Shown here in pieces: positions 2,710-14,207 of a DNA stretch of 40,140 bases. The stretch is from Acidimicrobiia bacterium (GTDB taxonomy: Bacteria > Actinomycetota > Acidimicrobiia > Spongiisociales > UBA4744). Position 1 is the first letter of the stretch; every line of letters starts with the position of its first letter. The stretch is taken from assembly GCA_035282865.1 (NCBI GenBank), contig DATEVB010000238.1:1-40140 (forward strand), in the 5' to 3' direction. The notes beneath the pieces are model-generated. The model was given only the letters and a program-made list of their open reading frames with translations. It made no database searches and was not told where the DNA came from. The position numbers were made by a program, and so were the translations under genes.

Positions 2710-3057
2710 CTAGGCGGCTGTGAACACCATCCCGTAGTACTTGTCGTAGGCGCCCTCTCGCACCACCTTGACCTCACCCTGAACCGCCATCCCCATCTTG
2801 GGGTTGTCGACCTCGAGCTGCCCGGTGATCCGCAGGCCGTTCTCCAGTTCGACGATGCCCAGTCCCAACGTCGGCACCTCGAACTCGGCCGGCAGGTTGT
2901 AGACCTTGGTGAAGGTCAGCAGCTTGCCCTTCTTCGGAAGCGGCACGATATCGAACTCGAAAAAGCCGTTCTGCCGGCACTCCTTGCAGACCATCCGGAA
3001 GGGATAGTGCAGATGACCGCATTTGCGACACTTATAGGCGTAGATCTCGCGAGCCAT
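2710..3057 (-). CDS. DUF35 family Zn-ribbon / OB-fold protein (thiolase-associated)
   Basis: Zinc ribbon CRKCGHLHYPFRMVCKEC is followed by an OB-fold-like C-terminus. Its ATG shares one nt with the stop of the upstream thiolase-like gene (TGATG). Confidence 0.85.
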   Translation of the reverse strand: MAREIYAYKCRKCGHLHYPFRMVCKECRQNGFFEFDIVPLPKKGKLLTFTKVYNLPAEFEVPTLGLGIVELENGLRITGQLEVDNPKMGMAVQGEVKVVREGAYDKYYGMVFTAA

Positions 3058-4232
3058 CAGTCCTCCCTCACAAAGGTCAGGCAGACAACGTTGTTGCCAA
3101 AACCGCCGAAATTGCAGGTAAAGCCGACCCGGGCTCCGTTGACCTGGCGGTCGCCGGCCTCGCCTCTGAGCTGCGTCACGATTTCGTGAGCCTGGGCAAC
3201 TCCGGTGGCACCGACCGGATGACCCTTCCCCTTCAACCCACCGGAGGGATTGATCGGCAGGGACCCGTCCAACGCGGTTTGCCCTTTCTCGAGGGCAATG
3301 TGTCCTTCGCCCTTCGGGAAGAACCCAACCTCTTCACTCTCGACGATCTCGAGGATGGTGAAGGCATCGTGCAGCTCCGCTACGTCTACATCCTGCGGTG
3401 TCAACCCGGCCATCTCCAACGACTTGGCAGCCGCCCGACGCACGGCCAGCAGATCGGTCGGTTCTTCCCGCTCGTGTACGGCGTGGGTATCGGTCGCCTG
3501 ACCGATACCGGCCAGGCGTATGGGTGGCCGATCGATGGTCTTGGCGACGTCTTCGGATACCAGGATGACCGCCGCTCCCCCGTCCGACACCGGACAAGCG
3601 TCGAAGAACCGCAGCGGTTCCGCCACATACGGGTTGTTCGTCATCGCTTCCGGCGAATCGAGGATGCCCTCGAGCGTGATCGGCTGGTGCAGGTGGGCGA
3701 ACTCGTTCAGCATGGCGTTGTTCTGGTTCTTGACCGCCACCATGGCCAGATGCCGTTCGGTCACACCGTACTTCTCCATGTACAGGCGAGTGAACATCGC
3801 CGCGTGGGACGGCAAGGTGACCCCGTATATGTACTCGGCCAGTGGATGGGTGAGGGTGGCGATGAAGTCGGTCGCCTCGAGGTTGTTGACCTCCCGCATG
3901 CGTTCGGCACCGCTGACCAGCACCACGTCGTGCAGACCTGATGCCACTGCCGCGAACCCGGCCTTGATGGCCGAAGCTCCCGAAGCCGGACCATTCTCGA
4001 CAACCGCCGCTCCGGCCGGAGTGAGACTCAGGCTGTCAACCACCGCACTGGCCAGCGCCGTCTGGTGGTTGATCCTCGCACTGCCCATGTTGGCCACGTA
4101 CAGGTGATCCACATCGGTGATCCCGGCGTCGTTCAGCGCCATCATCGATGGGTAGGCAGCGATCTCGGAGACCGGATACTCGAGCCGCGTGAAGCTGGTG
4201 ATGCCTATCCCGACTACGTATACGTTACGCAT
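3057..4232 (-). CDS. thiolase-like protein (SCP2/archaeal-thiolase type), apparently lacking catalytic cysteines
   Basis: MRNVYVVGIGITSF..., DACPVSDGGAA, GGLKGKGHPVGATG and NFGGFG are typical of SCP2/archaeal thiolases. The start was refined to ATG 4232, downstream of a GAGGGGAGA SD. The nucleophile motif reads GPASGAS and the HDCF motif reads HDAF. Confidence 0.85.
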   Translation of the reverse strand: MRNVYVVGIGITSFTRLEYPVSEIAAYPSMMALNDAGITDVDHLYVANMGSARINHQTALASAVVDSLSLTPAGAAVVENGPASGASAIKAGFAAVASGLHDVVLVSGAERMREVNNLEATDFIATLTHPLAEYIYGVTLPSHAAMFTRLYMEKYGVTERHLAMVAVKNQNNAMLNEFAHLHQPITLEGILDSPEAMTNNPYVAEPLRFFDACPVSDGGAAVILVSEDVAKTIDRPPIRLAGIGQATDTHAVHEREEPTDLLAVRRAAAKSLEMAGLTPQDVDVAELHDAFTILEIVESEEVGFFPKGEGHIALEKGQTALDGSLPINPSGGLKGKGHPVGATGVAQAHEIVTQLRGEAGDRQVNGARVGFTCNFGGFGNNVVCLTFVRED

Positions 4233-4983
4233 GATCCGTCTCCCCTCGGAGAGCATTACGCTGCGCAATGAGGGCGGTCGCCGTCGGGTCGTACATGGAC
4301 CTGGTGGCCGCCAACAAGTCGGCCGGGGGCGTGGGTGGATCCGACGGTGGCAGGATCTTGGCTTCCGCTTTGGCAAGAAGCTCCGGCGGAACCGGGCGCC
4401 GCCCCACGACCAGGGTCGAGCGGGCTCGATCGAAGAGCTCCTTGGTCAGCGACCACGACGGCACGCCGCCCAGCTCATGGGGCGTTTCGAACCGTTTGTC
4501 GAGCTGATATTCGATCATCCAGCGACGGAATCCGATCGGTGATTCGGCCACGACCAACACCTCTTTGTGCCCGAGGATGTCGATGTGGTATTCCATCTTG
4601 GCGGCGAAAGCGTGCGCGCCCACCCGCAAGCCGCGCCGGAGGGCGATGGTGTGCAATGACATACCAAGATCCCCCGACACCTGCCGCCCGTTGACGACGG
4701 CCGCCAACTCTCCTTCGATCTGCGCGATCAGCACGTACTCGTCTTGAGCCCGGTACCGGTAGTGAGCCAGCAACTCGGAGTAGATGCGGGCGCATACGAC
4801 GTCGTAGTAGTCCCGCTCGACGTGGAGGAGCGGCTCGAGATACGGCAGGACGTCGGGAATCTCGTCCCGATCGATCTGCCGGATCACCATGTGCTCGCCG
4901 CTCGCCAGCGTCATGTACTTCGCTTCGAACGGCTTCAAAGGGTGGTCTTCTGGACGGAGAATCCTCTCCAGGTCAACAGCCAT
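4225..4983 (-). CDS. hypothetical protein (possible GNAT-like acyltransferase fold)
   Basis: It sits in-operon between the Mo-hydroxylase and thiolase-like genes. Start ATG 4983 has GGAG about 10 nt upstream. The segment LHTIALRRGLRVGAHAF loosely resembles the GNAT R/Q-x-x-G-x-G/A motif. I recognised no firm family. Confidence 0.6.
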   Translation of the reverse strand: MAVDLERILRPEDHPLKPFEAKYMTLASGEHMVIRQIDRDEIPDVLPYLEPLLHVERDYYDVVCARIYSELLAHYRYRAQDEYVLIAQIEGELAAVVNGRQVSGDLGMSLHTIALRRGLRVGAHAFAAKMEYHIDILGHKEVLVVAESPIGFRRWMIEYQLDKRFETPHELGGVPSWSLTKELFDRARSTLVVGRRPVPPELLAKAEAKILPPSDPPTPPADLLAATRSMYDPTATALIAQRNALRGETDHA

Positions 4984-4996
4984 TGCGGTACATCTC

Positions 4997-7378
4997 CTAC
5001 TCCTCACTCTTCTCTCTCAACACCGATAGCGCCACCTTCTCGGCGGTGATCGGCATCGATGTGATGCGGACACCCAGGGCGTCCTTGATGGCATTACCGA
5101 TCATCGGCGCCGCCGGGATCATGGTGTGTTCTCCCACTCCTCTGGCCCCGAAGGGCCCGTCCGGCTGGGCGATCTCGATGATGATCGGAATCGTCTCTTC
5201 TGGTATGTCGTGGGCCGTCGGGATCTTGTAGTCCGTGAAGTTGGGGTTCAGCAACCGCCCGTCCTCCCCGAACCGCATGTCCTCGTAGAGGACCGTGGCC
5301 AGACCCTGGACGATCCCGCCTGTGATCTGCCCTTCGATGAGACTGGGGTTGATGGCCTTGCCGACGTCGACAGCCAGCGCCACCTTCTTGACCTTCATCC
5401 GGCCGGTTTCCCGGTCGACCTCGAGCACCACCCCGGCTGCCCCCACCGTGTAGTGGACGTTGGGATGACCGCCCTGACTGGTCTCGGGGTCACTGCGGGT
5501 CGACGTGAACTCGGGCATGAACTTGCCGGAACCCACGATCGGTCCACCCTTGAAGGTGCCGTCCGTGTCTTCGAGCCCGTCGATGACAAAATCTTTCAAC
5601 GGCAGCTTGAAGTCGGGATCGGTGCTGGACCGGACGCTCTCATCCTCGAGATAGAGCGACTCCTCTTCGTAGCCGTGCACCCGATGCACAACGTCGAAGA
5701 TCTTCTCGCGGGCCTCGACCGCGGCTGCATGCACGGCATTACCGCAGCTCCACGTAACATGCGAGGCAACCGTCTGCCACTCATAGGGGTTGCGGTCGGT
5801 GTCGGGGGTCTCGACCCGGATCTTGGTAGGAGGCACCGCCAACACCTCCCCGGCAATCTGGGCCATGGCGGTCATATACCCCTGGCCGAGCTCCATGCCC
5901 GAGACGGAGATGTTCATGCTGCCGTCCTCATTGAACTTGAGGAATGACGCCGACGAGGCGTTGGGCGGCATGGCCGGCGCCTTCCAGAACACGGCGAAGC
6001 CCTTACCGATCGCTTTGTTGGGGTCGTCCGACGTCTCTTCCTTCCCCCACTCGATGGCATCTGCGGTTCGATCGATGGCCTCGATCAACCCGGATGGATT
6101 CATCTCCGCTCCGTAGGCGAGGATATCGCCCTCAACAATGGCGTTCTTGCGCCGGAACGCGACCGGATCCATCCCGATGGCCTCGGCGACCCGATCGACA
6201 TGTGATTCGAGCCCGAACACGAACTCCGAATACCCGAAGCCGCGGTACGGACCACCGGGCGGCAGGTTGGTGTAGATGCATTTGGAGTCGATCCATACGT
6301 TGGGGACACGATACGGGCCGGTGGCCGACAACCCGGCGGCGTTGACCACATTGGCTCCATATTCGACATAGGCGCCGGCGTCCCAGTTGAGGATGTGCCT
6401 GATGGCAGTGATCGTGCCGTCGTTCTTGACACCCATCTTCAGGTGAGCGACCAAGCCCTGCCGCTGGTAGGTGTTGTAGAACTCCTGCTCCCTGGTAAAC
6501 CGGATCTTGACGGGATGGCCCTTGGCCGCGGTAGCGAGGGCCGCGCCCATGATCTCCATCGAGACGCCGGCTTTCCCACCGAATCCTCCACCCACGTACG
6601 GGGTGATGACCCGGACGTCCTTGTGAGACAGGCCAAGCGGAGCGAGCGCTTCTGCAAAGAGATGCCGCTGCGTGTACGGTGACTGCGACGCCGACCACAT
6701 GGTCAGACGGCCGGATTGGTCGTAGAGCCCGACGATCACATGCGGTTCGATCGCACAGTGTGCATACCTGGGCACCCTGTACTCGCCCTCCAACACCAGG
6801 TCGGCTTGGGCGAAGCCCCGCTCGACGTCACCCTTGCGAGTCTTGCGCCAGTGGGCGATGTTCGTGTTTTCGTGCGGGTAGAACCACGGGACGTGCGCGT
6901 AGTCGCCCAGATCCGGATGGATCAGCTCGGAATCCGGTTTGAGGGCTTCGAGCGGATCAAAGATCGGGGGCAGCTCCTCATAGGTGACTTCGACGAGCTT
7001 GGCGGCCCGTTTGGCCACCTTGGGGTCGCGAGCGATGACCGCCGCCACTTGTTCACCGACGAAGCGGACCCGGTCCTGGGCAAAAACGTACCGGTCCTTC
7101 ATGTACAGCCCGAACTTGAACGGGAAATCCTTCCCGGTGACGACCTTGGTCACACCGGGGACGGCTGCCGCCGCCGAGGTGTCGATGGCCTTGATCAAAG
7201 CGTTGGCGAAGGGGCTTTCGACGATCTCCGCGTACAAGAGGTCGGGACCGAAATCGAGGTCGTCCACGTACCGGGCCGCACCCGAGACCTTCTCCAATCC
7301 GTCCACTCTCACGGCCGCCTTGCCAACGAAATCGAGGCCGCGGGTGCTTTCTCGCTCGAACGGTCTGAGCGTCGTCAT
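4997..7378 (-). CDS. xanthine dehydrogenase family molybdopterin-binding large subunit
   Basis: It contains VGGGFGGKAG, a C-terminal GARGVGE (catalytic Glu context) and aldehyde-oxidase/XDH a/b hammerhead-like N-terminal VDGLEKVSGAARYVDD. Start ATG 7378 overlaps the 2Fe-2S subunit stop (ATGA). Confidence 0.9.
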   Translation of the reverse strand: MTTLRPFERESTRGLDFVGKAAVRVDGLEKVSGAARYVDDLDFGPDLLYAEIVESPFANALIKAIDTSAAAAVPGVTKVVTGKDFPFKFGLYMKDRYVFAQDRVRFVGEQVAAVIARDPKVAKRAAKLVEVTYEELPPIFDPLEALKPDSELIHPDLGDYAHVPWFYPHENTNIAHWRKTRKGDVERGFAQADLVLEGEYRVPRYAHCAIEPHVIVGLYDQSGRLTMWSASQSPYTQRHLFAEALAPLGLSHKDVRVITPYVGGGFGGKAGVSMEIMGAALATAAKGHPVKIRFTREQEFYNTYQRQGLVAHLKMGVKNDGTITAIRHILNWDAGAYVEYGANVVNAAGLSATGPYRVPNVWIDSKCIYTNLPPGGPYRGFGYSEFVFGLESHVDRVAEAIGMDPVAFRRKNAIVEGDILAYGAEMNPSGLIEAIDRTADAIEWGKEETSDDPNKAIGKGFAVFWKAPAMPPNASSASFLKFNEDGSMNISVSGMELGQGYMTAMAQIAGEVLAVPPTKIRVETPDTDRNPYEWQTVASHVTWSCGNAVHAAAVEAREKIFDVVHRVHGYEEESLYLEDESVRSSTDPDFKLPLKDFVIDGLEDTDGTFKGGPIVGSGKFMPEFTSTRSDPETSQGGHPNVHYTVGAAGVVLEVDRETGRMKVKKVALAVDVGKAINPSLIEGQITGGIVQGLATVLYEDMRFGEDGRLLNPNFTDYKIPTAHDIPEETIPIIIEIAQPDGPFGARGVGEHTMIPAAPMIGNAIKDALGVRITSMPITAEKVALSVLREKSEE

Positions 7379-7851
7379 CCCGTTGCCTCCCCTCCGGCAT
7401 GGGCTGCCGCCAGGACGGCATCGATGATCGGATCGTATCCGGTACACCGGCAAAGGTTGCCGCCGATCGCCTCCTGGACGTCTTCTCGGGTTGGGCGGGG
7501 ATTCTCCTCCAGGAGTTCAGCCGCCGCCAGTACGATTCCGGGCGCACAAAAGCCGCACTGGAATGAGTTCATATCGACGAAGAACTGCTGGAGTTCGGTC
7601 AGCCCCTCGTCGTCCAGCCCTTCAATGGTGACCACCTCGTGGCCGTCGGCCTCCACCGAAAGGACCAGGCAGCTCCGCACCGTGTGGCCGTCGAGCAGCA
7701 CCGTGCAACTCCCGCAATCCCCCCGCTCGCATCCGATCTTCGGGCTCTTCACGCCGACCTTGGACCGGAGCGTTTCGAGGAGCACATCGTTGGGTTCGAC
7801 CGACAGCAACCACGGTTCGCCGTTGACCGTGACCGAGACATCCATTCGCAT
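7375..7851 (-). CDS. (2Fe-2S)-binding small subunit of the Mo hydroxylase
   Basis: Cysteine motifs CERGDCGSCTV, CGFCAPG and CRCTGY are typical of the XDH/CoxS family. Confidence 0.9.
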   Translation of the reverse strand: MRMDVSVTVNGEPWLLSVEPNDVLLETLRSKVGVKSPKIGCERGDCGSCTVLLDGHTVRSCLVLSVEADGHEVVTIEGLDDEGLTELQQFFVDMNSFQCGFCAPGIVLAAAELLEENPRPTREDVQEAIGGNLCRCTGYDPIIDAVLAAAHAGGEATG

Positions 7852-7859
7852 CCGTCCCC

Positions 7860-8750
7860 CTACATCAAGTTGGTTCCGTAGGAAGGCCCGTTGCCTTCCA
7901 GCCGTTCCACGGCAGCCTTCAAGCCCCGCTGCAACATCACTTCCGACATTCGAAGCCGGTATTCCTTCGATGCCCTGATATCGGTAATGGGCGAGATCTC
8001 CTCGGACACCAGTGCCATGGCCCGGGCGACCAGCACCGGATCGAGCGCCTTACCCTCCAGAAGCGCTTCGACGCGCCGCGCCCGCACGGGCGTGTCGGCC
8101 ACCGCCCCGAAGGCAACCCGGAACCGATGATCGGGTGGCGCCAGAATGGCAACGCTGGCCTGAGCGAGGTCCTCACCTTCGTAGCGACTGAGCCGGACAA
8201 AAGCGGCGCCGTGGCCGCCGGGCGGTACCGGCACCACCACTTTGGTCACAATCTCACCCCGACCGAGCGCCGTCATGCGTGGTCCGAGGAACCACTCGTC
8301 GATGGGAATCCGGCGGGTACCAGCAACTCCGACGGTATGGACCACCGCTCCGTACACGAGGAGTACCGGCCCGGCATCACACGAGGGCACGGCCGAACAG
8401 ATGTTCCCGACCATGGTGGCTCGATTGCGGATTCCGGTGGATGCCACAGTCGCCGCCATCTCGGAGATCAACGGCAGCCGGGCGGCGACCGGCCCCGAGT
8501 TGAGGAGATGAGTAAAGGTGACCAGCGAACCCATCGAAAGGGCGTCTCCTTCGTCGACGATCTCGCCGAGACCCTCGATCCGCTTGATATCGACGACCAG
8601 GTCGGGGGCGACCGCTTCGTCCCGCAACCAGGCAATGAGGTCGGTGCCACCAGCCAGCACCCGGACGTCACCGGCGTGCCCGATGAGGATCTCCAGTGCT
8701 TCGTCCAGCGTCTCCGGCCGCTCGTAATCGAACACCTGGGCGATCGTCAT
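7860..8750 (-). CDS. FAD-binding medium subunit of the Mo hydroxylase (CoxM/XdhB-like)
   Basis: It contains LAGGTDL and has a CO-dehydrogenase flavoprotein-like C-terminus. Start ATG 8750 is preceded by AAGGAGG. Confidence 0.9.
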   Translation of the reverse strand: MTIAQVFDYERPETLDEALEILIGHAGDVRVLAGGTDLIAWLRDEAVAPDLVVDIKRIEGLGEIVDEGDALSMGSLVTFTHLLNSGPVAARLPLISEMAATVASTGIRNRATMVGNICSAVPSCDAGPVLLVYGAVVHTVGVAGTRRIPIDEWFLGPRMTALGRGEIVTKVVVPVPPGGHGAAFVRLSRYEGEDLAQASVAILAPPDHRFRVAFGAVADTPVRARRVEALLEGKALDPVLVARAMALVSEEISPITDIRASKEYRLRMSEVMLQRGLKAAVERLEGNGPSYGTNLM

Positions 8751-8829
8751 ATCACCCTCCTTGTTGTCCGTTTTGTCAAACCTAGGCGATTCATGGGAGA
8801 CCGGGCGGCACACCGCCCGCCCGGGGCTG

Positions 8830-10242
8830 TCAAGAGTTCCCTACTCCCCCGGCCAGCGCTTTGACCGCGTCGATGAAACACTCCATCGGGGCCTCCACCA
8901 GGCCCGCCCCGACCATCCCTATGCCGGGTTCCTTTCCCGCCACGCCGGTGTTGATCTGAGGACGAACCCCGGTGCGTACCACCAACATCGCGTCGATCCC
9001 GGTCGGTGTGCCCCGGAACTCCAGGATGGGTATCTGGTATGAGGGATGCTCGGCCATAGTTATCTCGTACATGGCCTGGGTCCGTTGGACGGCGCCGGCC
9101 GCGGTACCACCGACGAATCCGACGATGGCCGGCGAGGCGGCCATGGCGAACCCACCCAGGCCGATCGTCTCGGTGATGGCCGAGTCTCCGATGTCCGGGT
9201 TGGCGTCGTCGGCGGTGAACGACCCGAGGAAGAGACCGTCCACGATCGGGGCCGGAGCCGTGAACCACCGGTCGCCGGTCCCCGACAGCCGGATGCCGAA
9301 CTCGGTTCCGTTGCGGGCCATGGTCGTGACCAGGCTGGAATTGGCCACCCCGGACGCCGCATCGACGACCAGCTTCCCGGCTGCCATCACCAGGTTGAGC
9401 ATGAAGTGGTCGTTCGAGTCGATGAAGGAGTACACGGCCGAACGGTCGGCAACCGGTGCGGCGTCGCTCTCCACCAGCGCGGCGCCGATGGTCCGGAGCA
9501 GCAGGGAGGTTCCCGCTCGATTGCGATTGTGCCCGTCGTCTCCCATCTGCAGAGCCTGGGCGATGAGAGAGCGCAGATCAACGGGGCCGGTCCGTCGGAG
9601 GGCGTCTCCCACCACCGGTCCCAGCACCCGTTCCATCCACCGGAGCCGCTCGATGACCTCAGGGGAATAGGCCCCGTACCGAAGGACTTTGCCGAGTCCT
9701 TCATTGAGGGTCGAGTACGCCACTCCCCCGCTTGCGGGGTCTTGTACGACCAGCACCGGCATGGAAGGGCTGATGACGCCGGCCATCGGGCCGACCGCTT
9801 GATGATGGTGGCAGGGAGAGAATTCAACCTCACCGGCTTGGAGCTTGGTTGCCGCCTCCGCGGCAGTCGCCGCGAAACCTTCGTAGAGCATGGCGCCCAT
9901 CAGGGCCCCCCGCATGGGTCCGCTGGCATCCGCCCAGGAAAGCGGCGGCCCGGCATGCAGGAACATGCGCTCGGTCAATCCGGGGATCGCCGTGCCGGCC
10001 GGGACCACATCCACCAGGTGGGGACGAACCTCGAGCAATCGGGCGACGGCGAGCTGGTTGGCTTCCGCCACCGCCGGCGTTGCCGCCAGCTTGGCGAGGG
10101 CTGCTTCGGTTCCGCCGGCCGGCGGGCTCCACTCGGTCCTCCGCACCTCGACGCTCTGCGCCTCGAGCGCACCGGCCAGCACTTCGACCCCGACCGTCAC
10201 GATCACCGGCTCGGTGTCGAGGAGGCGTTGGAGCTCACTCAT
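8830..10242 (-). CDS. DUF1116 family protein (YlbE/AllG-like)
   Basis: From memory, it aligns along most of its length to E. coli YlbE (LHAGPP, FSPCHHHQAVGPMAG, NEGLGKVLRYGAY, DSAITETIGLGG, INTGVAGKE.GIG). Start ATG 10242 overlaps the FdrA stop (ATGA). Confidence 0.85.
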   Translation of the reverse strand: MSELQRLLDTEPVIVTVGVEVLAGALEAQSVEVRRTEWSPPAGGTEAALAKLAATPAVAEANQLAVARLLEVRPHLVDVVPAGTAIPGLTERMFLHAGPPLSWADASGPMRGALMGAMLYEGFAATAAEAATKLQAGEVEFSPCHHHQAVGPMAGVISPSMPVLVVQDPASGGVAYSTLNEGLGKVLRYGAYSPEVIERLRWMERVLGPVVGDALRRTGPVDLRSLIAQALQMGDDGHNRNRAGTSLLLRTIGAALVESDAAPVADRSAVYSFIDSNDHFMLNLVMAAGKLVVDAASGVANSSLVTTMARNGTEFGIRLSGTGDRWFTAPAPIVDGLFLGSFTADDANPDIGDSAITETIGLGGFAMAASPAIVGFVGGTAAGAVQRTQAMYEITMAEHPSYQIPILEFRGTPTGIDAMLVVRTGVRPQINTGVAGKEPGIGMVGAGLVEAPMECFIDAVKALAGGVGNS

Positions 10243-11669
10243 AGGGCACCCCCTTCGACCAACGAGATTGCGTGGTTGGCTGCCGCAGCGTTGGACAGCC
10301 ACACAGATGCGCCGGCCTCGTTGAGGAGACGGGCCTGCCGATCACGATCCTGGGGATCACCCCTGGTGCCACACAGCGAAACCACCACCGCGGCTCCCTC
10401 GGCGATGGCCAGGGCGATCACCGGTGCCAGCTCAGAGGCCGGATCGGGATGGGCCCCGTGCCCGAGGACCACATCGAGCAGGACGACACCGATCTGCGGA
10501 TCATGAGCTGCAGCTTCCAGACGCTGCAACCTGAGCCGCTGGTCGATCATCGGATGGGCCCGGCCACGGGTGTATTCGTCCTCCCCGTAGTCGATGACCG
10601 TGTGACCGCCAGCCTGTTCGCGCTGAGCGATCGTCCCGAGGGAACCGGCCGCCAAGCGAGCAGCCTCGCTACTGAGGCTGCCACCCGAGAACAAGCCCCT
10701 GAGCATCCCGGGCCGATGGTCGTCCGTCGCGGCCGGCCAGGAGGCGTAGACGGGTGGCACCTTGCCCAGCAGATCCAGGGCTTGACGCACGGCTCCCTCC
10801 AGGGTGACTCCCTCTTCTCCGAGGAAGGCCAGCACGGTCGGTGTCGTGCATTCCTCGGTGGCCGCCCGCACCCGGGCGGCCACCTCGGGGGCAGGCGGTT
10901 TCGAGACCACAATCAGCACTTCGGTGCTGGGATCTGCATCGAGGGCGGCCAACCCACGCAACGTGGAAGAACCACCCACTTCGATCGACAGATCGTGGCT
11001 GCCGGTGCCCAACGCGTTACGAACTCCGACGCCGGCATCGTCAAGCAAGGAACAGAGTTGCTGGATACCGGTGCCGGCTGCACCAACGATGCCAACGGGA
11101 CCCGGTTGCACCACGTTGGCAAAGCCCAGGCCGACTCCGTTGACGATGGCCGTGCCGCAATCGGGTCCCATGACGAGCAGACCCAACCGGCCGGCGGCCT
11201 GTTTGAGCATCACCTCCTGAGCGCTCGGCACGTTGTCGCTGAACACCATCACGTCGAGCCCGTGCTGCAACGCGTCCATTGCCTCGATGAACGCATACTC
11301 GCCGGGAACCGATATCAACGCCAGAGTGGCTCCGGCGGCCGCCGATCCGACCACATGAGCAGGTGGAGCCGCCAGCATCCCGGAGTCGCGGGTGGTCCTG
11401 GCCGCCAGGGCCGCCTCGAGGACCTGTCGAGCATGATCGACCGCTTGCTCGTCGGCGGCACGCACCGCGACGATGAGGTCGTTGGGTCCGGCCTCGCCGA
11501 TCGACTCCACCTCGAATCCCATGCCGGCCAGCAACTCACGATTGAGGTCGGTCGCCATCGCCACCAAGGCCTCTTCTACCCCTTGGGCTTGCTGCAGCGA
11601 CCGGCTCACCTGCATCAGCCGCACGGAATCGTGGTAGGTGCCGCGGCGAACCTCAACGCTATCGATCAT
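10239..11669 (-). CDS. fdrA: FdrA family protein (succinyl-CoA-synthetase-alpha-like; AllF-like)
   Basis: MIDSVEVRRGTYHDSVRLMQVSR, LALISVPGEYA, VMVFSDNV, LLVMGPDCGT, VSKPP and GRAHPMID mirror E. coli FdrA. The ATG overlaps the upstream DUF2877 stop (ATGA). Confidence 0.85.
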   Translation of the reverse strand: MIDSVEVRRGTYHDSVRLMQVSRSLQQAQGVEEALVAMATDLNRELLAGMGFEVESIGEAGPNDLIVAVRAADEQAVDHARQVLEAALAARTTRDSGMLAAPPAHVVGSAAAGATLALISVPGEYAFIEAMDALQHGLDVMVFSDNVPSAQEVMLKQAAGRLGLLVMGPDCGTAIVNGVGLGFANVVQPGPVGIVGAAGTGIQQLCSLLDDAGVGVRNALGTGSHDLSIEVGGSSTLRGLAALDADPSTEVLIVVSKPPAPEVAARVRAATEECTTPTVLAFLGEEGVTLEGAVRQALDLLGKVPPVYASWPAATDDHRPGMLRGLFSGGSLSSEAARLAAGSLGTIAQREQAGGHTVIDYGEDEYTRGRAHPMIDQRLRLQRLEAAAHDPQIGVVLLDVVLGHGAHPDPASELAPVIALAIAEGAAVVVSLCGTRGDPQDRDRQARLLNEAGASVWLSNAAAANHAISLVEGGAL

Positions 11670-12505
11670 GCATTGCTCCCTTCAACAAGGAAATCGGCAG
11701 CCAACAGAATCCCGCAGGCCGTTGCTACCCCGGAGGTGTTCCCCATCATGTACAGACCGCCGACAGCCTCCTCCAGATCGCCTCTCCCGGTCAGGGCCTG
11801 GAGGAACGCCGCCACCGGATCGGCCACCTCGCCCGCCACGGCATGTCGCAGCAGCGCCGCCGACAAGGCAGTCGTGCGAAAAGGCGCCTCCATCAGGACG
11901 ATCGAAGCGACCTCGGCCACCATCCCGCCTGCCCCCACAGCACCTACCGCCGGACCCAGCAACCGCAAGCCGGACAGCATTCCGACCAGCACATCGTCCC
12001 CTTCCGGAGTGAGCCCTGCACCCCTCCCGAGCAGGGCACACATGGCGTGACGGACGGCGGCGGGATCGTTCCTCTTCAGCGACTGACCCAGGCCTCCATC
12101 GTCGGGAAATACGAATCGCGGCCGGGCATCCGCACATCTAGCGGCCACATCCTTCCGGGACACCGATCCCAGCGTTGGTCGCGGATCCCACCAGCGGACG
12201 ACCCTGACCTTTACGCTCCCTACCTCCAACCCGCCGTCTCCGACCACACAGCGGTCTCCGGATTGCGATCGGGCCGCATCGGCCGGCTCTGCCACGGTGA
12301 CGCCGTTGGGCAAACGCACCGCCTCACGCCCGGAGAGCACCAGCACATGCCCGCCCGCCTGCAGCCAAGCGGCGTTGCCCGAAGCACCCAGCAAGACCCC
12401 GGGTTTGCGGGGACCCTCCAGGAGATAACGCACCCCGCGACTAGCCGCCGCCGCCAACGACGTCGGGGCGGTCGCAATGCCCGTCGGGTGCGGCTTGGCC
12501 GGCAT
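11666..12505 (-). CDS. DUF2877 family protein (YlbF/AllH-like)
   Basis: The GAGLTPEGDDVLVGMLSGL motif is typical of DUF2877. The length (279 aa) is similar to YlbF. The start was set to ATG 12505, 10 nt after the amidohydrolase stop. Confidence 0.7.
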   Translation of the reverse strand: MPAKPHPTGIATAPTSLAAAASRGVRYLLEGPRKPGVLLGASGNAAWLQAGGHVLVLSGREAVRLPNGVTVAEPADAARSQSGDRCVVGDGGLEVGSVKVRVVRWWDPRPTLGSVSRKDVAARCADARPRFVFPDDGGLGQSLKRNDPAAVRHAMCALLGRGAGLTPEGDDVLVGMLSGLRLLGPAVGAVGAGGMVAEVASIVLMEAPFRTTALSAALLRHAVAGEVADPVAAFLQALTGRGDLEEAVGGLYMMGNTSGVATACGILLAADFLVEGSNA

Positions 12506-12515
12506 CCGTCCAGTC

Positions 12516-13616
12516 TCAGCCGAGGTCGACGATGGCTGCCACCGGGCCCCCTCCGGAAGGTCCCTGATGGATGGCCGCCACCGAGACGAACACGGCCGCA
12601 TCGTCGACGGCCGCGGCAACCACTCCCCCGACGGCACCCTTGATATGCCGATGGTGGTGCACATCGGAATCGTCGAGCGCTACCTGCCGGCGGCCGCGCA
12701 GTTTGGCGGTCGGATCCGCCTCACATTTCACGAACACGTTGACCAACCGGCCATCGAGGTCTGCCGGCCTCGCTCGATCGGGGAGGTCGAGGCCCGCCGA
12801 GCGGATCGCCTCGTAGACCCCTTCAAAATCGAGCGCATCCTTCATGACGCTGTGACCTATCCGGTACCGGCCTCCCGCGCCGCGTACGTTCCCGACGACA
12901 ACCGTTTGCGCCTGGTTCAGTTCGACACCCGACGAGCAGGAGGCCACCGAGGAATAGAGGGAGAGATCGTGGCCGATTTGATCTTCCGTCGGAATGATGT
13001 CGATTTCACCCAGGGCATAGGCGATGCCGAGCCCGGAAGTCCCGTTGGAGATGTTCATCGACTCGAGCGGCTCCTCGGTCACTACGGAATGGCCCCGCGA
13101 TTTGGCATCGTTGATAGTGTCCATCGTCAGCAGCGGCGTTTTGGTCTGCACATAGTGGACATCCGCCGGATCTTCGATGCCGGCTTCTCTCATGGCCCGC
13201 TTGACTCCCTCTGCCACCTTTTCGACCATGGCGGGCCGGCCGATGTCTTCAGGAAGAATCACCTCACTCATGGCGTAGCCAACCGCCAACCGTGGCTCAT
13301 TAGAGGGGTTGGCGTCGTCGGCCACCCGGGCAAACACCGTTGCATGTGGGGTGAGGATGCCGTCGGTTCCGCCCGACCAAACCATCGGAATCTCCTTGAC
13401 TTCCTCGAGGGGCCGGGTCCCCAGCTCCATGAGGACGTCACGGAAGGCGCGATCGGCGAGAATCCTGGTGAAGTCGTTGACGCCGCCGTTCCCTTCGGTC
13501 TTCCCGATAACGGCGATCACCTCATCGGCGCCGAACGCCCCCTGATCGATCAGCGACTTCATCCCCGACGCATCGGTGACACTCTCCAGGACGACCTTGC
13601 GTACTTCGATGGCCAT
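12516..13616 (-). CDS. ring-opening amidohydrolase of the barbiturase / cyanuric acid amidohydrolase (AtzD/TrzD) family
   Basis: 366 aa. It contains MAIEVRKV...[54 protein letters not shown] and [17 protein letters not shown]. The threefold Ser/Lys repeat pattern is typical of the family. ATG 13616 has GGGAGAG upstream. Confidence 0.85.
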
Positions 13617-13769: not shown

Positions 13770-14207
13770 ATGGACACCTTTCTTCGAGCAGCCATCGACG
13801 AGGCAACGGCCGGATTGTCGGAGGGAGGCATCCCCATCGGCTCGGTGTTGGTGATCGACGGCGAGATAAAGGGGAGAGGTCACAACCGCCGGGTGCAACG
13901 CGGCAGCGCCATCCTCCACGCCGAGATGGACTGCCTCGAGAACGCCGGGCGGTTGGGGGCGGCCGACTACCGGCGGGCCGTGCTCTACTCCACGCTGTCC
14001 CCCTGTGACATGTGCAGCGGTGCCATCCTGCTCTACCGGATCCCGCGGGTGGTTGTGGCAGAAAACCGAACCTTCCGGGGTCCCGAAGAACACCTCCGCT
14101 CCCGGGGGGTTGAGATCGAGATCGTCGATGACCCGATCTGCATCAAGCTGATGGAGGACTTCATCGCCGCCCGACCCGAGCTGTGGGACGAGGATATCGG
14201 CGAGTAG
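13770..14207 (+). CDS. cytosine deaminase, yeast Fcy1-type (CMP/dCMP zinc-deaminase fold)
   Basis: HAEMDCLEN and [12 protein letters not shown] zinc motifs are present. GGIPIGSVL...GRGHNRR and the C-terminal [10 protein letters not shown] closely parallel S. cerevisiae Fcy1 as I recall it (PQDWFEDIGE). Confidence 0.85.

Follow-up and report, generated by a model that had tools for sequence, protein, structure and literature searches.

Organization of the operon

The window, a 40,140-nucleotide (nt) stretch of contig DATEVB010000238.1 from an Acidimicrobiia bacterium (assembly GCA_035282865.1), carries on its minus strand an operon of ten genes. The first gene encodes a ring-opening amidohydrolase of the barbiturase clade. 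It is followed by genes for three proteins related to the AllH (DUF2877), AllF (FdrA) and AllG (DUF1116) subunits of Escherichia coli, here called the trio. A sequence-only reading of the window had given the order amidohydrolase, DUF2877, FdrA and DUF1116. Pfam and NCBIfam bear out this order, the strand and the coordinates, and the motifs cited in that reading, GAGLTPEGDDVLVG, FSPCHHHQAVGPMAG and DSAITETIGLGG, are found in the translations. Searches with hidden Markov models of the three trio families matched all of them (Table 1).

Direct reading of the junctions gives the spacing that had been claimed, a 10-nt gap followed by two ATGA overlaps. The barbiturase-type gene stops with TGA at 12516–12518, ten nucleotides (gactggacgg) follow, and AllH starts with the ATG at 12505. 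The stop of AllH and the start of AllF share the ATGA at 11666–11669, and the stop of AllF and the start of AllG share that at 10239–10242. The three trio genes are contiguous and coupled by the two overlaps. This arrangement is not due to chance, as the four-gene unit recurs in 24 further loci, with protein identities of 33–88%.

The operon extends past 8830 with six more tightly spaced genes, down to 2710. A gap of 76 nt separates AllG from the gene for a flavin adenine dinucleotide (FAD)-binding subunit, and the later genes overlap or are separated by 13 nt at most. A scan of the operon region found no promoter-like site, and terminator-like sites only at background level; such a scan is uninformative for a high-GC actinobacterium.

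Table 1. Genes of the operon, listed from the first gene to the last.
Gene product	Position	Strand	Evidence
Barbiturase-clade ring-opening amidohydrolase (Toblerone fold), 366 residues; first gene of the operon	12516–13616	minus	PF09663
AllH-like (DUF2877) subunit, 279 residues	11666–12505	minus	PF11392 AllH, 78 bits
AllF/FdrA-like subunit, 476 residues	10239–11669	minus	NF004760 FdrA, 427 bits; PF00549; PF02629
AllG-like (DUF1116) subunit, 470 residues	8830–10242	minus	PF06545 AllG, 321 bits; PDB 3clq, E 3e-120
FAD-binding subunit of xanthine-dehydrogenase-family enzyme (candidate uracil/thymine dehydrogenase)	7860–8753	minus	PF00941; PF03450
2Fe-2S subunit of xanthine-dehydrogenase-family enzyme	7375–7851	minus	PF01799; PF00111
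Molybdopterin subunit of xanthine-dehydrogenase-family enzyme	4997–7378	minus	PF01315; PF02738; PF20256
Conserved 252-residue protein, GNAT-like predicted fold, no Pfam family	4225–4983	minus	Foldseek on AlphaFold model
Archaeal-type thiolase-domain protein	3057–4232	minus	PF22691; PF00108; NF004720, 395 bits
DUF35 protein (zinc ribbon and OB fold), thiolase partner; last gene of the operon	2710–3057	minus	PF01796; PF12172

The first gene encodes a predicted barbiturase

The first gene product matches the PF09663 profile (Amido_AtzD_TrzD) over its full length, with residues 4–364 on profile positions 1–358 (475 bits), and scores 504 bits with TIGR02714, whose cut-off is 153. Its best match in the PDB is barbiturase 5hwe (519 bits, 68% identity); cyanuric acid hydrolases reach 315 bits at most. 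In a library clustered at 50% identity, one full-length representative is 67% identical to the first gene product and the other full-length ones are 46% identical or less, which indicates that the barbiturase clade is tight and separate from the hydrolase type.

Signature residues divide the family in the same way. The first gene product has ESMNISNG and barbiturase 5hwe has ESMDLSNG, where TrzD and the Moorella enzyme have YSRG. ASCSSG and GNGGVND are common to the first gene product and barbiturase, and ASTSAG and GNGCVND occur in TrzD and the Moorella enzyme. The arginine of the hydrolases (SRG) is therefore replaced by Asn (SNG), as in barbiturase. In an alignment with seven diverse family members K39, S81, K159, S228, K297 and S345 are invariant; by the AtzD structures, these residues would form the three catalytic Ser-Lys pairs, one per domain. 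The earlier assignment of this enzyme to the barbiturase family is upheld by the identities and by the barbiturase-specific residues, and the first gene is a predicted barbiturase, on the barbiturase side of the family.

The NCBIfam equivalog model for cyanuric acid amidohydrolase (AtzD) also accepts the first gene product, with 461 bits against a cut-off of 360. The model therefore does not distinguish barbiturase from cyanuric acid hydrolase, and automatic annotation would mislabel the gene. The names of close homologues switch between barbiturase and cyanuric acid amidohydrolase.

If the name given by that model were right, the operon would belong to s-triazine degradation, with a cyanuric acid hydrolase as its first enzyme and with a trio that phosphorolyses carboxybiuret or biuret. 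Genuine cyanuric acid hydrolase clusters do include the trio and a carbamate kinase, as described below. However, identity is 67–68% within the barbiturase clade and falls to 46% or less toward full-length hydrolase-type representatives, the arginine of the hydrolases is Asn, and the ring-hydroxylating molybdenum enzyme of the operon would be idle with cyanuric acid. A cyanuric acid hydrolase at this locus is very unlikely.

Relation of the trio to E. coli AllFGH

The three subunits are homologous to those of E. coli K-12: AllF exhibits 41% identity to FdrA, AllG 47% to YlbE, and AllH 36% to YlbF, the last over the C-terminal 115 residues. In E. coli the allantoin locus carries fdrA-ylbE-ylbF-ybcF, where ybcF encodes carbamate kinase, and Pfam now calls these families AllG, AllH and HMA_AllF_N; the family assignments and the E. 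coli background of the sequence-only reading were correct. E. coli AllFGH has been named oxamate carbamoyltransferase, an enzyme that converts oxalurate to carbamoyl phosphate and oxamate. AllF of the window stays 6 bits under the NF004760 cut-off of 433. It contains Ligase_CoA (PF00549) and CoA_binding (PF02629) domains, which have folds like those of the alpha subunit of succinyl-coenzyme A (CoA) synthetase, and it matches the FdrA structure 3dmy with E 1e-71. The segment of AllF that aligns with succinyl-CoA synthetase alpha stops short of the phosphohistidine loop. A sequence search of the PDB with AllH gave nothing usable.

Residues 1–50 of AllG (10093–10242) match residues 513–550 of E. 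coli FdrA with E 2e-5; for AllG of the window, YahG and the plasmid forms taken together, the matched stretch of FdrA is 513–555 (L001, 18217–18345), with E 2e-5 to 2e-6. All these AllG proteins begin with the segment, which is about 45–50 residues long, and the E. coli allantoin locus has it as the C-terminal end of FdrA. Such swapping between subunits argues that AllF and AllG touch each other in the complex. An apparent AllF-AllG fusion in P0391 was rejected, the sequence being a long-read contig full of broken genes.

The window and the E. coli allantoin locus are thus alike in three homologous subunits of the Pfam families AllG and AllH and the FdrA subfamily, encoded by contiguous, coupled genes. 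They differ in the side of the subunit boundary on which the swapped segment lies and in gene order, which is F-G-H-K in E. coli and H-F-G in the window; trio genes usually come in the order H-F-G(-K), from which the allantoin locus departs. The trio of E. coli is accompanied by allantoin genes and the kinase, whereas that of the window is accompanied by the barbiturase and a molybdenum hydroxylase, with no kinase in the window. The predicted substrate here is one CH2 longer than oxalurate.

Conservation across barbiturase loci

A scan of one genome per species gave 80 barbiturase-clade loci (69–91% identity), which together with one ENA contig make a set of 81. They span Acidimicrobiia, Nitriliruptoria, many Actinomycetes and one Dormibacteraeota. 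The loci were searched by tblastn with the window proteins and with E. coli YbcF, AllB, AllC, AllD and AllE, within 10 kb of the barbiturase gene.

Carbamate kinase is the commonest neighbour, present in 47 of the 81 loci, and the trio is present in 27. The trio occurs without the kinase in 23 loci and the kinase without the trio in 43; four loci have both, and 11 have neither, at least four of the latter ending close to the barbiturase gene. The loci that bridge the two patterns are L027, L053, L055 and L069, and Embleya is a further case. Where the kinase occurs alone, in 40 of 43 loci its gene precedes the barbiturase gene on the same strand, at a distance of 27–396 nt. The kinase homologues score 277–302 bits, above the NCBIfam carbamate kinase subfamily cut-off of 266.

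In every Acidimicrobiia locus with enough downstream sequence the trio directly follows the barbiturase gene. The order is barbiturase, AllH, AllF and AllG, usually followed by the block of dehydrogenase, GNAT-fold, thiolase and DUF35 genes. Three Acidimicrobiia loci (L007, L018 and L020) have the four-gene unit alone, without the dehydrogenase and CoA-type genes; the four genes are therefore the constant core. The gene after AllG in L020 (14770–15705) and L007 (14847–15560) belongs to the aminoglycoside/hydroxyurea resistance kinase family PF04655.

Other lineages show other arrangements. Nitriliruptoraceae loci L055 and L069 have the order barbiturase, xanthine/uracil-family permease, carbamate kinase, AllH, AllF and AllG. 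In the Dormibacteraeota locus L027, AllG, AllF and AllH lie on the opposite strand, followed by permease, GNAT-fold homologue, barbiturase, dehydrogenase and kinase genes. Two complete chromosomes filed in the plasmid collection, from Embleya and Nonomuraea gerenzanensis, allowed a view beyond 10 kb. In Embleya, genes for XdhC, AllG-F-H, PucR, permease, dehydrogenase, CoxG, CN-hydrolase and a barbiturase-kinase pair all lie within about 21 kb. N. gerenzanensis has a single AllG copy, which is grouped with the genes for AllH, AllF and the dehydrogenase at a distance of 41 kb from that for barbiturase. Three actinomycete contigs centred on the trio repeat the PucR-permease-dehydrogenase-trio block.

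Streptosporangiales and their relatives have the kinase-barbiturase pair among housekeeping genes. In some 40 actinomycete genomes (L023–L082; for instance L041 at 8982–11095, L059 and L037) this is a two-gene unit with no trio within 10 kb. The neighbours of the unit are aminotransferase, SseB, glycyl-tRNA synthetase and aro genes.

Within Acidimicrobiia alone, a common gene order could be inherited synteny, and the trio could then serve a pathway unrelated to the barbiturase. Mere adjacency of this kind would have to account for the translational coupling by ATGA overlaps and a 10-nt gap, and for a linkage that is rebuilt, with changed gene order and orientation, in Nitriliruptoria, Dormibacteraeota, Streptomycetaceae and Proteobacteria. 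We give it hardly any weight.

The same loci bear on whether the trio is an ordinary oxamate carbamoyltransferase. It would then act on oxalurate in a purine or ureide pathway, the molybdenum enzyme would act as xanthine dehydrogenase, and the ring opened by the amidohydrolase would be one such as parabanate, with oxalurate as the product. The homology to AllFGH at 36–47% identity is consistent with this, as is the PucR-type regulator in related actinomycete clusters, and the best NCBIfam model for the permease is a xanthine permease, below its cut-off. The window and the 81 loci, however, contain no homologue of AllC, AllD or AllE (allantoate amidohydrolase, ureidoglycolate dehydrogenase and ureidoglycine aminohydrolase), and no amidase; for the allantoinase AllB there are two weak amidohydrolase matches in the loci. 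The pattern that the sequence-only reading had named as contrary to it, allantoin genes in all homologous clusters, is not seen. The amidohydrolase is close to the crystallised barbiturase and has its signature residues. The molybdopterin subunit stays below every xanthine dehydrogenase equivalog cut-off and has Ala where xanthine-specific enzymes have Glu. An oxalurate pathway at this locus is accordingly improbable, in our judgment.

Clusters in Proteobacteria and on plasmids

Trio genes also accompany amidohydrolases of the hydrolase type. Plasmid pZ96-1_4 of Leclercia (L086, 661–10740) carries genes for a hypothetical protein, amidohydrolase, NCS2 permease, DUF2877, fdrA, DUF1116, carbamate kinase and a LysR regulator, in this order. 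Clusters of this type apparently occur on dozens of plasmids of Citrobacter, Klebsiella, Enterobacter and Raoultella, clinical and environmental. The amidohydrolase of the Leclercia cluster has its best match in the Moorella cyanuric acid hydrolase (582 bits). In Klebsiella plasmid pKqs_SB610_3 (L085, 7741–24176) and Aminobacter SR38, genes for allophanate hydrolase, a hypothetical protein, fdrA, DUF1116, amidohydrolase and carbamate kinase follow one another; this amidohydrolase equals the crystallised TrzD in sequence, or very nearly so (810 bits to PDB 5t13). Twenty-three of the 25 best amidohydrolase-bearing plasmid records recur in the AllG match lists. None of 67 Rhizobium records with a member of the amidohydrolase family is among the AllG matches listed.

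These plasmid clusters share with the window a Toblerone-fold amidohydrolase beside DUF2877, fdrA and DUF1116, the long AllG and, in Leclercia, the H-F-G order. In contrast to the window, their amidohydrolases are of the hydrolase type (SRG), 46–47% identical to the window enzyme. The kinase is always present, the partners include an NCS2 permease, LysR or allophanate hydrolase, and a molybdenum enzyme is absent.

Two further clusters combine the trio and kinase with other hydrolases. In E. coli yahE-F-G-I-J, trio and kinase stand beside a hydrolase of the amidohydrolase superfamily. The widespread IncF cluster of E. coli, as in pEc673-2 (L089, 5633–13811), has genes for an isochorismatase-type cysteine hydrolase, DUF2877, fdrA, DUF1116, carbamate kinase (arcC), an allophanate-hydrolase C-terminal-domain (AH_C) protein, cytosine permease and LysR. 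Both resemble the window in the H-F-G order, the long AllG and a hydrolase that presumably supplies the substrate of the trio. They differ from it in that the upstream hydrolases are of other families and carbamate kinase is present.

On pADP-1 (L092, NC_004956.1, 70219–72703) the atrazine gene atzC follows a carbamate kinase gene and a 200-nt AllG fragment cut by ISPps1. The fragment is of the actinobacterial type, 76% identical to the AllG of the window, and the atzC cassette is also found on plasmids of Paenarthrobacter, Aminobacter and Agrobacterium. Apparently atzC derives by capture from a cluster of trio, kinase and amidohydrolase genes resembling yahG-yahI-yahJ.

Proposed pathway

We propose, with moderate confidence, that the operon serves oxidative pyrimidine catabolism and that the trio would phosphorolyse ureidomalonate to carbamoyl phosphate and malonamate. 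The gene families, operon structure and conserved neighbourhoods were read directly; from them we infer all the chemical steps as follows. The molybdenum/FAD/iron-sulfur enzyme would convert uracil (or thymine) to barbiturate, and the barbiturase would open the ring to ureidomalonate (3-oxo-3-ureidopropanoate). By analogy to E. coli AllFGH acting on oxalurate, the AllH-AllF-AllG complex would then cleave the ureido bond with phosphate, not water, to yield carbamoyl phosphate and malonamate. The carbamoyl phosphate could give ATP via a carbamate kinase encoded elsewhere, or enter arginine and pyrimidine synthesis. The GNAT-fold protein, the thiolase and the DUF35 protein probably handle the three-carbon remainder as CoA esters.

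The possible substrates form a series H2N-CO-NH-CO-X-COO-: oxalurate has no X, ureidomalonate has a CH2 group at this place, and carboxybiuret has an NH group. If phosphate splits the terminal ureido bond, each would release carbamoyl phosphate, and the second product would be oxamate from oxalurate, malonamate from ureidomalonate and allophanate from carboxybiuret. The trio appears to be a transferable module for the phosphorolysis of N-carbamoyl-amide acids. A single reaction type of this kind would explain why the trio follows a ring-opening amidohydrolase. Carbamate kinase would be the commonest companion because carbamoyl phosphate is the expected product, and the TrzD cluster would include allophanate hydrolase because that enzyme is expected to take the product of carboxybiuret phosphorolysis. 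Comparative genomics supports the phosphorolysis interpretation well. A more general claim, that AllFGH-like trios are "ureide phosphorylases" linking Toblerone-fold amidohydrolases (barbiturase and cyanuric acid hydrolase) to carbamate kinase, is offered tentatively, as a possibility to which we would give somewhat less than an even chance.

The pathway of Rhodococcus erythropolis is the closest known counterpart; it reportedly consists, after the work of Soong, Ogawa and Shimizu in 2001–2002, of uracil/thymine dehydrogenase, barbiturase and ureidomalonase. The window resembles it in the barbiturase and in a three-subunit molybdenum/FAD/iron-sulfur oxidoreductase that fits the dehydrogenase step. 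Unlike that pathway, the window has no amidase-type ureidomalonase, and the trio sits directly after the barbiturase gene. The products would be carbamoyl phosphate and malonamate instead of urea and malonate.

Several observations weigh against the proposed pathway, besides the acceptance of the first gene product by the cyanuric acid amidohydrolase model. Carbamate kinase is absent from the 40-kb window and from within 10 kb of the barbiturase gene in any Acidimicrobiia-type locus. The operon closes with three CoA-ester-type genes and FdrA has a CoA-binding domain, so that a CoA-dependent cleavage is conceivable. The function of E. coli AllFGH, from which the analogy is drawn, is taken from database names. 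A tree of AllG parts the barbiturase-linked from the proteobacterial sequences, but this split coincides with taxonomy and is no evidence of a separate specificity.

The CoA-type genes lead to another possible reaction, in which the trio attacks the acyl side of ureidomalonate to give malonyl phosphate or malonyl-CoA and urea, with the energy kept as a thioester. Onward conversion to acetyl-CoA would fall to the GNAT-fold protein, acting as a malonyl-CoA decarboxylase, and to the thiolase/DUF35 pair. Such an attack would suit the succinyl-CoA-synthetase-alpha-like domains of FdrA, whose CoA-binding domain is above the Pfam cut-off, and the three CoA-ester-type folds at the end of the operon. 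It would also suit the lack of carbamate kinase near any Acidimicrobiia locus, and the family III CoA-transferase and AccD/AccA-like carboxyltransferase near the barbiturase in other lineages. However, neither the window nor the loci contain urease or urea carboxylase, three Acidimicrobiia loci have the four-gene core without the CoA-type genes, and the alignment of FdrA to succinyl-CoA synthetase alpha ends before the phosphohistidine loop. Moreover, carbamate kinase accompanies the trio in all lineages other than Acidimicrobiia and in each of the proteobacterial versions, a pairing that is sensible only if carbamoyl phosphate is the product. Attack on the acyl side is therefore unlikely, though it is the alternative that we take most seriously.

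Phosphorolysis of ureidomalonate, which the sequence-only reading had put forward, is thus favoured by the kinase at 47 of the 81 barbiturase loci, by the bridging loci and by the proteobacterial parallel, and is disfavoured by the missing kinase near Acidimicrobiia loci. Its claim that the pathway potentially yields ATP or carbamoyl phosphate is supported in part; no kinase lies in the window or near the loci of the Acidimicrobiia relatives, so that the ATP portion stays hypothetical for this organism. The families on which its chemistry was built are correct; the CoA chemistry hinted at by the GNAT fold, the thiolase and the DUF35 protein had been left out of consideration.

To our knowledge, of the three steps of the oxidative pathway only barbiturase has a known gene, and none is known for uracil/thymine dehydrogenase or ureidomalonase. 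We also know of no description of a linkage between barbiturase, trio and kinase. The operon and its relatives supply candidates for the two remaining steps, namely the molybdenum enzyme as uracil/thymine dehydrogenase and the trio in place of ureidomalonase. A phosphorolytic last step would gain carbamoyl phosphate and, in the presence of carbamate kinase, also ATP.

For cyanuric acid, the same chemistry would add a third, phosphorolytic route, from carboxybiuret to carbamoyl phosphate and allophanate, beside the biuret hydrolase and AtzE routes. This would bear on s-triazine and melamine degradation and on the role of the clusters on clinical plasmids. It would also extend the range of substrates of a three-subunit family of enzymes whose function was assigned only recently, offer a rationale for the orphan yahEFG-yahI-yahJ cluster of E. 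coli, and point to a shared phosphorolytic principle in the breakdown of pyrimidine and s-triazine rings.

Other genes of the operon and window

A 92%-identical relative has the ten genes annotated in the same order. The three genes after AllG encode the xanthine-dehydrogenase-family enzyme. The start of the FAD subunit was set at the ATG after the ribosome-binding site AAGGAAGGAGAT, and no NCBIfam equivalog model reaches its cut-off with this subunit. A start at 7378 for the molybdopterin subunit gives an ATGA overlap, the same as in the relative L002. The best NCBIfam model for this subunit is XdhA, with 516 bits under a cut-off of 780, and it misses all xanthine dehydrogenase equivalog cut-offs. 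It contains the motifs GGGFGGKAG, RGFG and GVGEH. The Glu that follows GGGFGGK in bovine xanthine oxidase (Glu802) is presumably xanthine-specific, and Ala stands at this position in the window subunit.

The 252-residue protein has no match in Pfam, including its GNAT families, or in NCBIfam, and a PDB sequence search gave nothing usable; its 2297 homologues are all named "hypothetical". In its AlphaFold model the mean pLDDT is 64, with 74–90 in the core. Of the top 50 Foldseek matches of the model in the PDB, practically all are GNAT-type acetyltransferases, with E values of 1e-6 to 2e-4 and TM-scores of 0.35–0.5. Homologues adjoin the barbiturase gene in L027 (9119–9844) and L056 (7616–8341). 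The protein is probably part of the pathway, because with the window this makes three different gene arrangements in which it neighbours the barbiturase.

The thiolase gene, whose product scores 336 bits with NF053570 (equivalog cut-off 600), overlaps the DUF35 gene by 1 nt. The thiolase is conserved at the same position across the Acidimicrobiia loci, and DUF35 is likewise placed in L002. The pair resembles the archaeal thiolase/HMG-CoA synthase/DUF35 complex in having an archaeal-type thiolase gene followed by a DUF35 gene. It differs in that the window has no HMG-CoA synthase and that the GNAT-fold protein precedes the pair.

The remainder of the window is housekeeping, with typA, DEAD helicase, Lon, prolyl oligopeptidase and other genes. 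The names that close homologues bear agree with an origin in the Acidimicrobiia. A search of this remainder for carbamate kinase, urease, amidase and transcarbamylase found none; the kinase that the sequence-only reading suggested looking for elsewhere in the genome is thus not in these 40 kb. Divergent from the operon, on the plus strand at 13770–14207, is a gene for a 145-residue protein of the cytidine/dCMP-deaminase fold, kept only in the closest relatives and beside typA. A role as a cytosine-to-uracil feeder was considered for it and is unsupported, since the best model, TadA, is far under its cut-off and only those relatives have the gene.

In other lineages, genes for a CN-hydrolase, an amidase-signature protein, a family III CoA-transferase and an AccD/AccA-like carboxyltransferase lie near the barbiturase or the trio, and are plausible handlers of malonamate or malonate. 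The carboxyltransferase is a fused protein whose gene adjoins the barbiturase gene in L056 (8344–9966) and L027 (17354–18892). It exhibits weak similarity to the beta and gamma subunits of biotin-independent malonate decarboxylase, and possibly it is a malonate or malonyl-thioester decarboxylase of the pathway.

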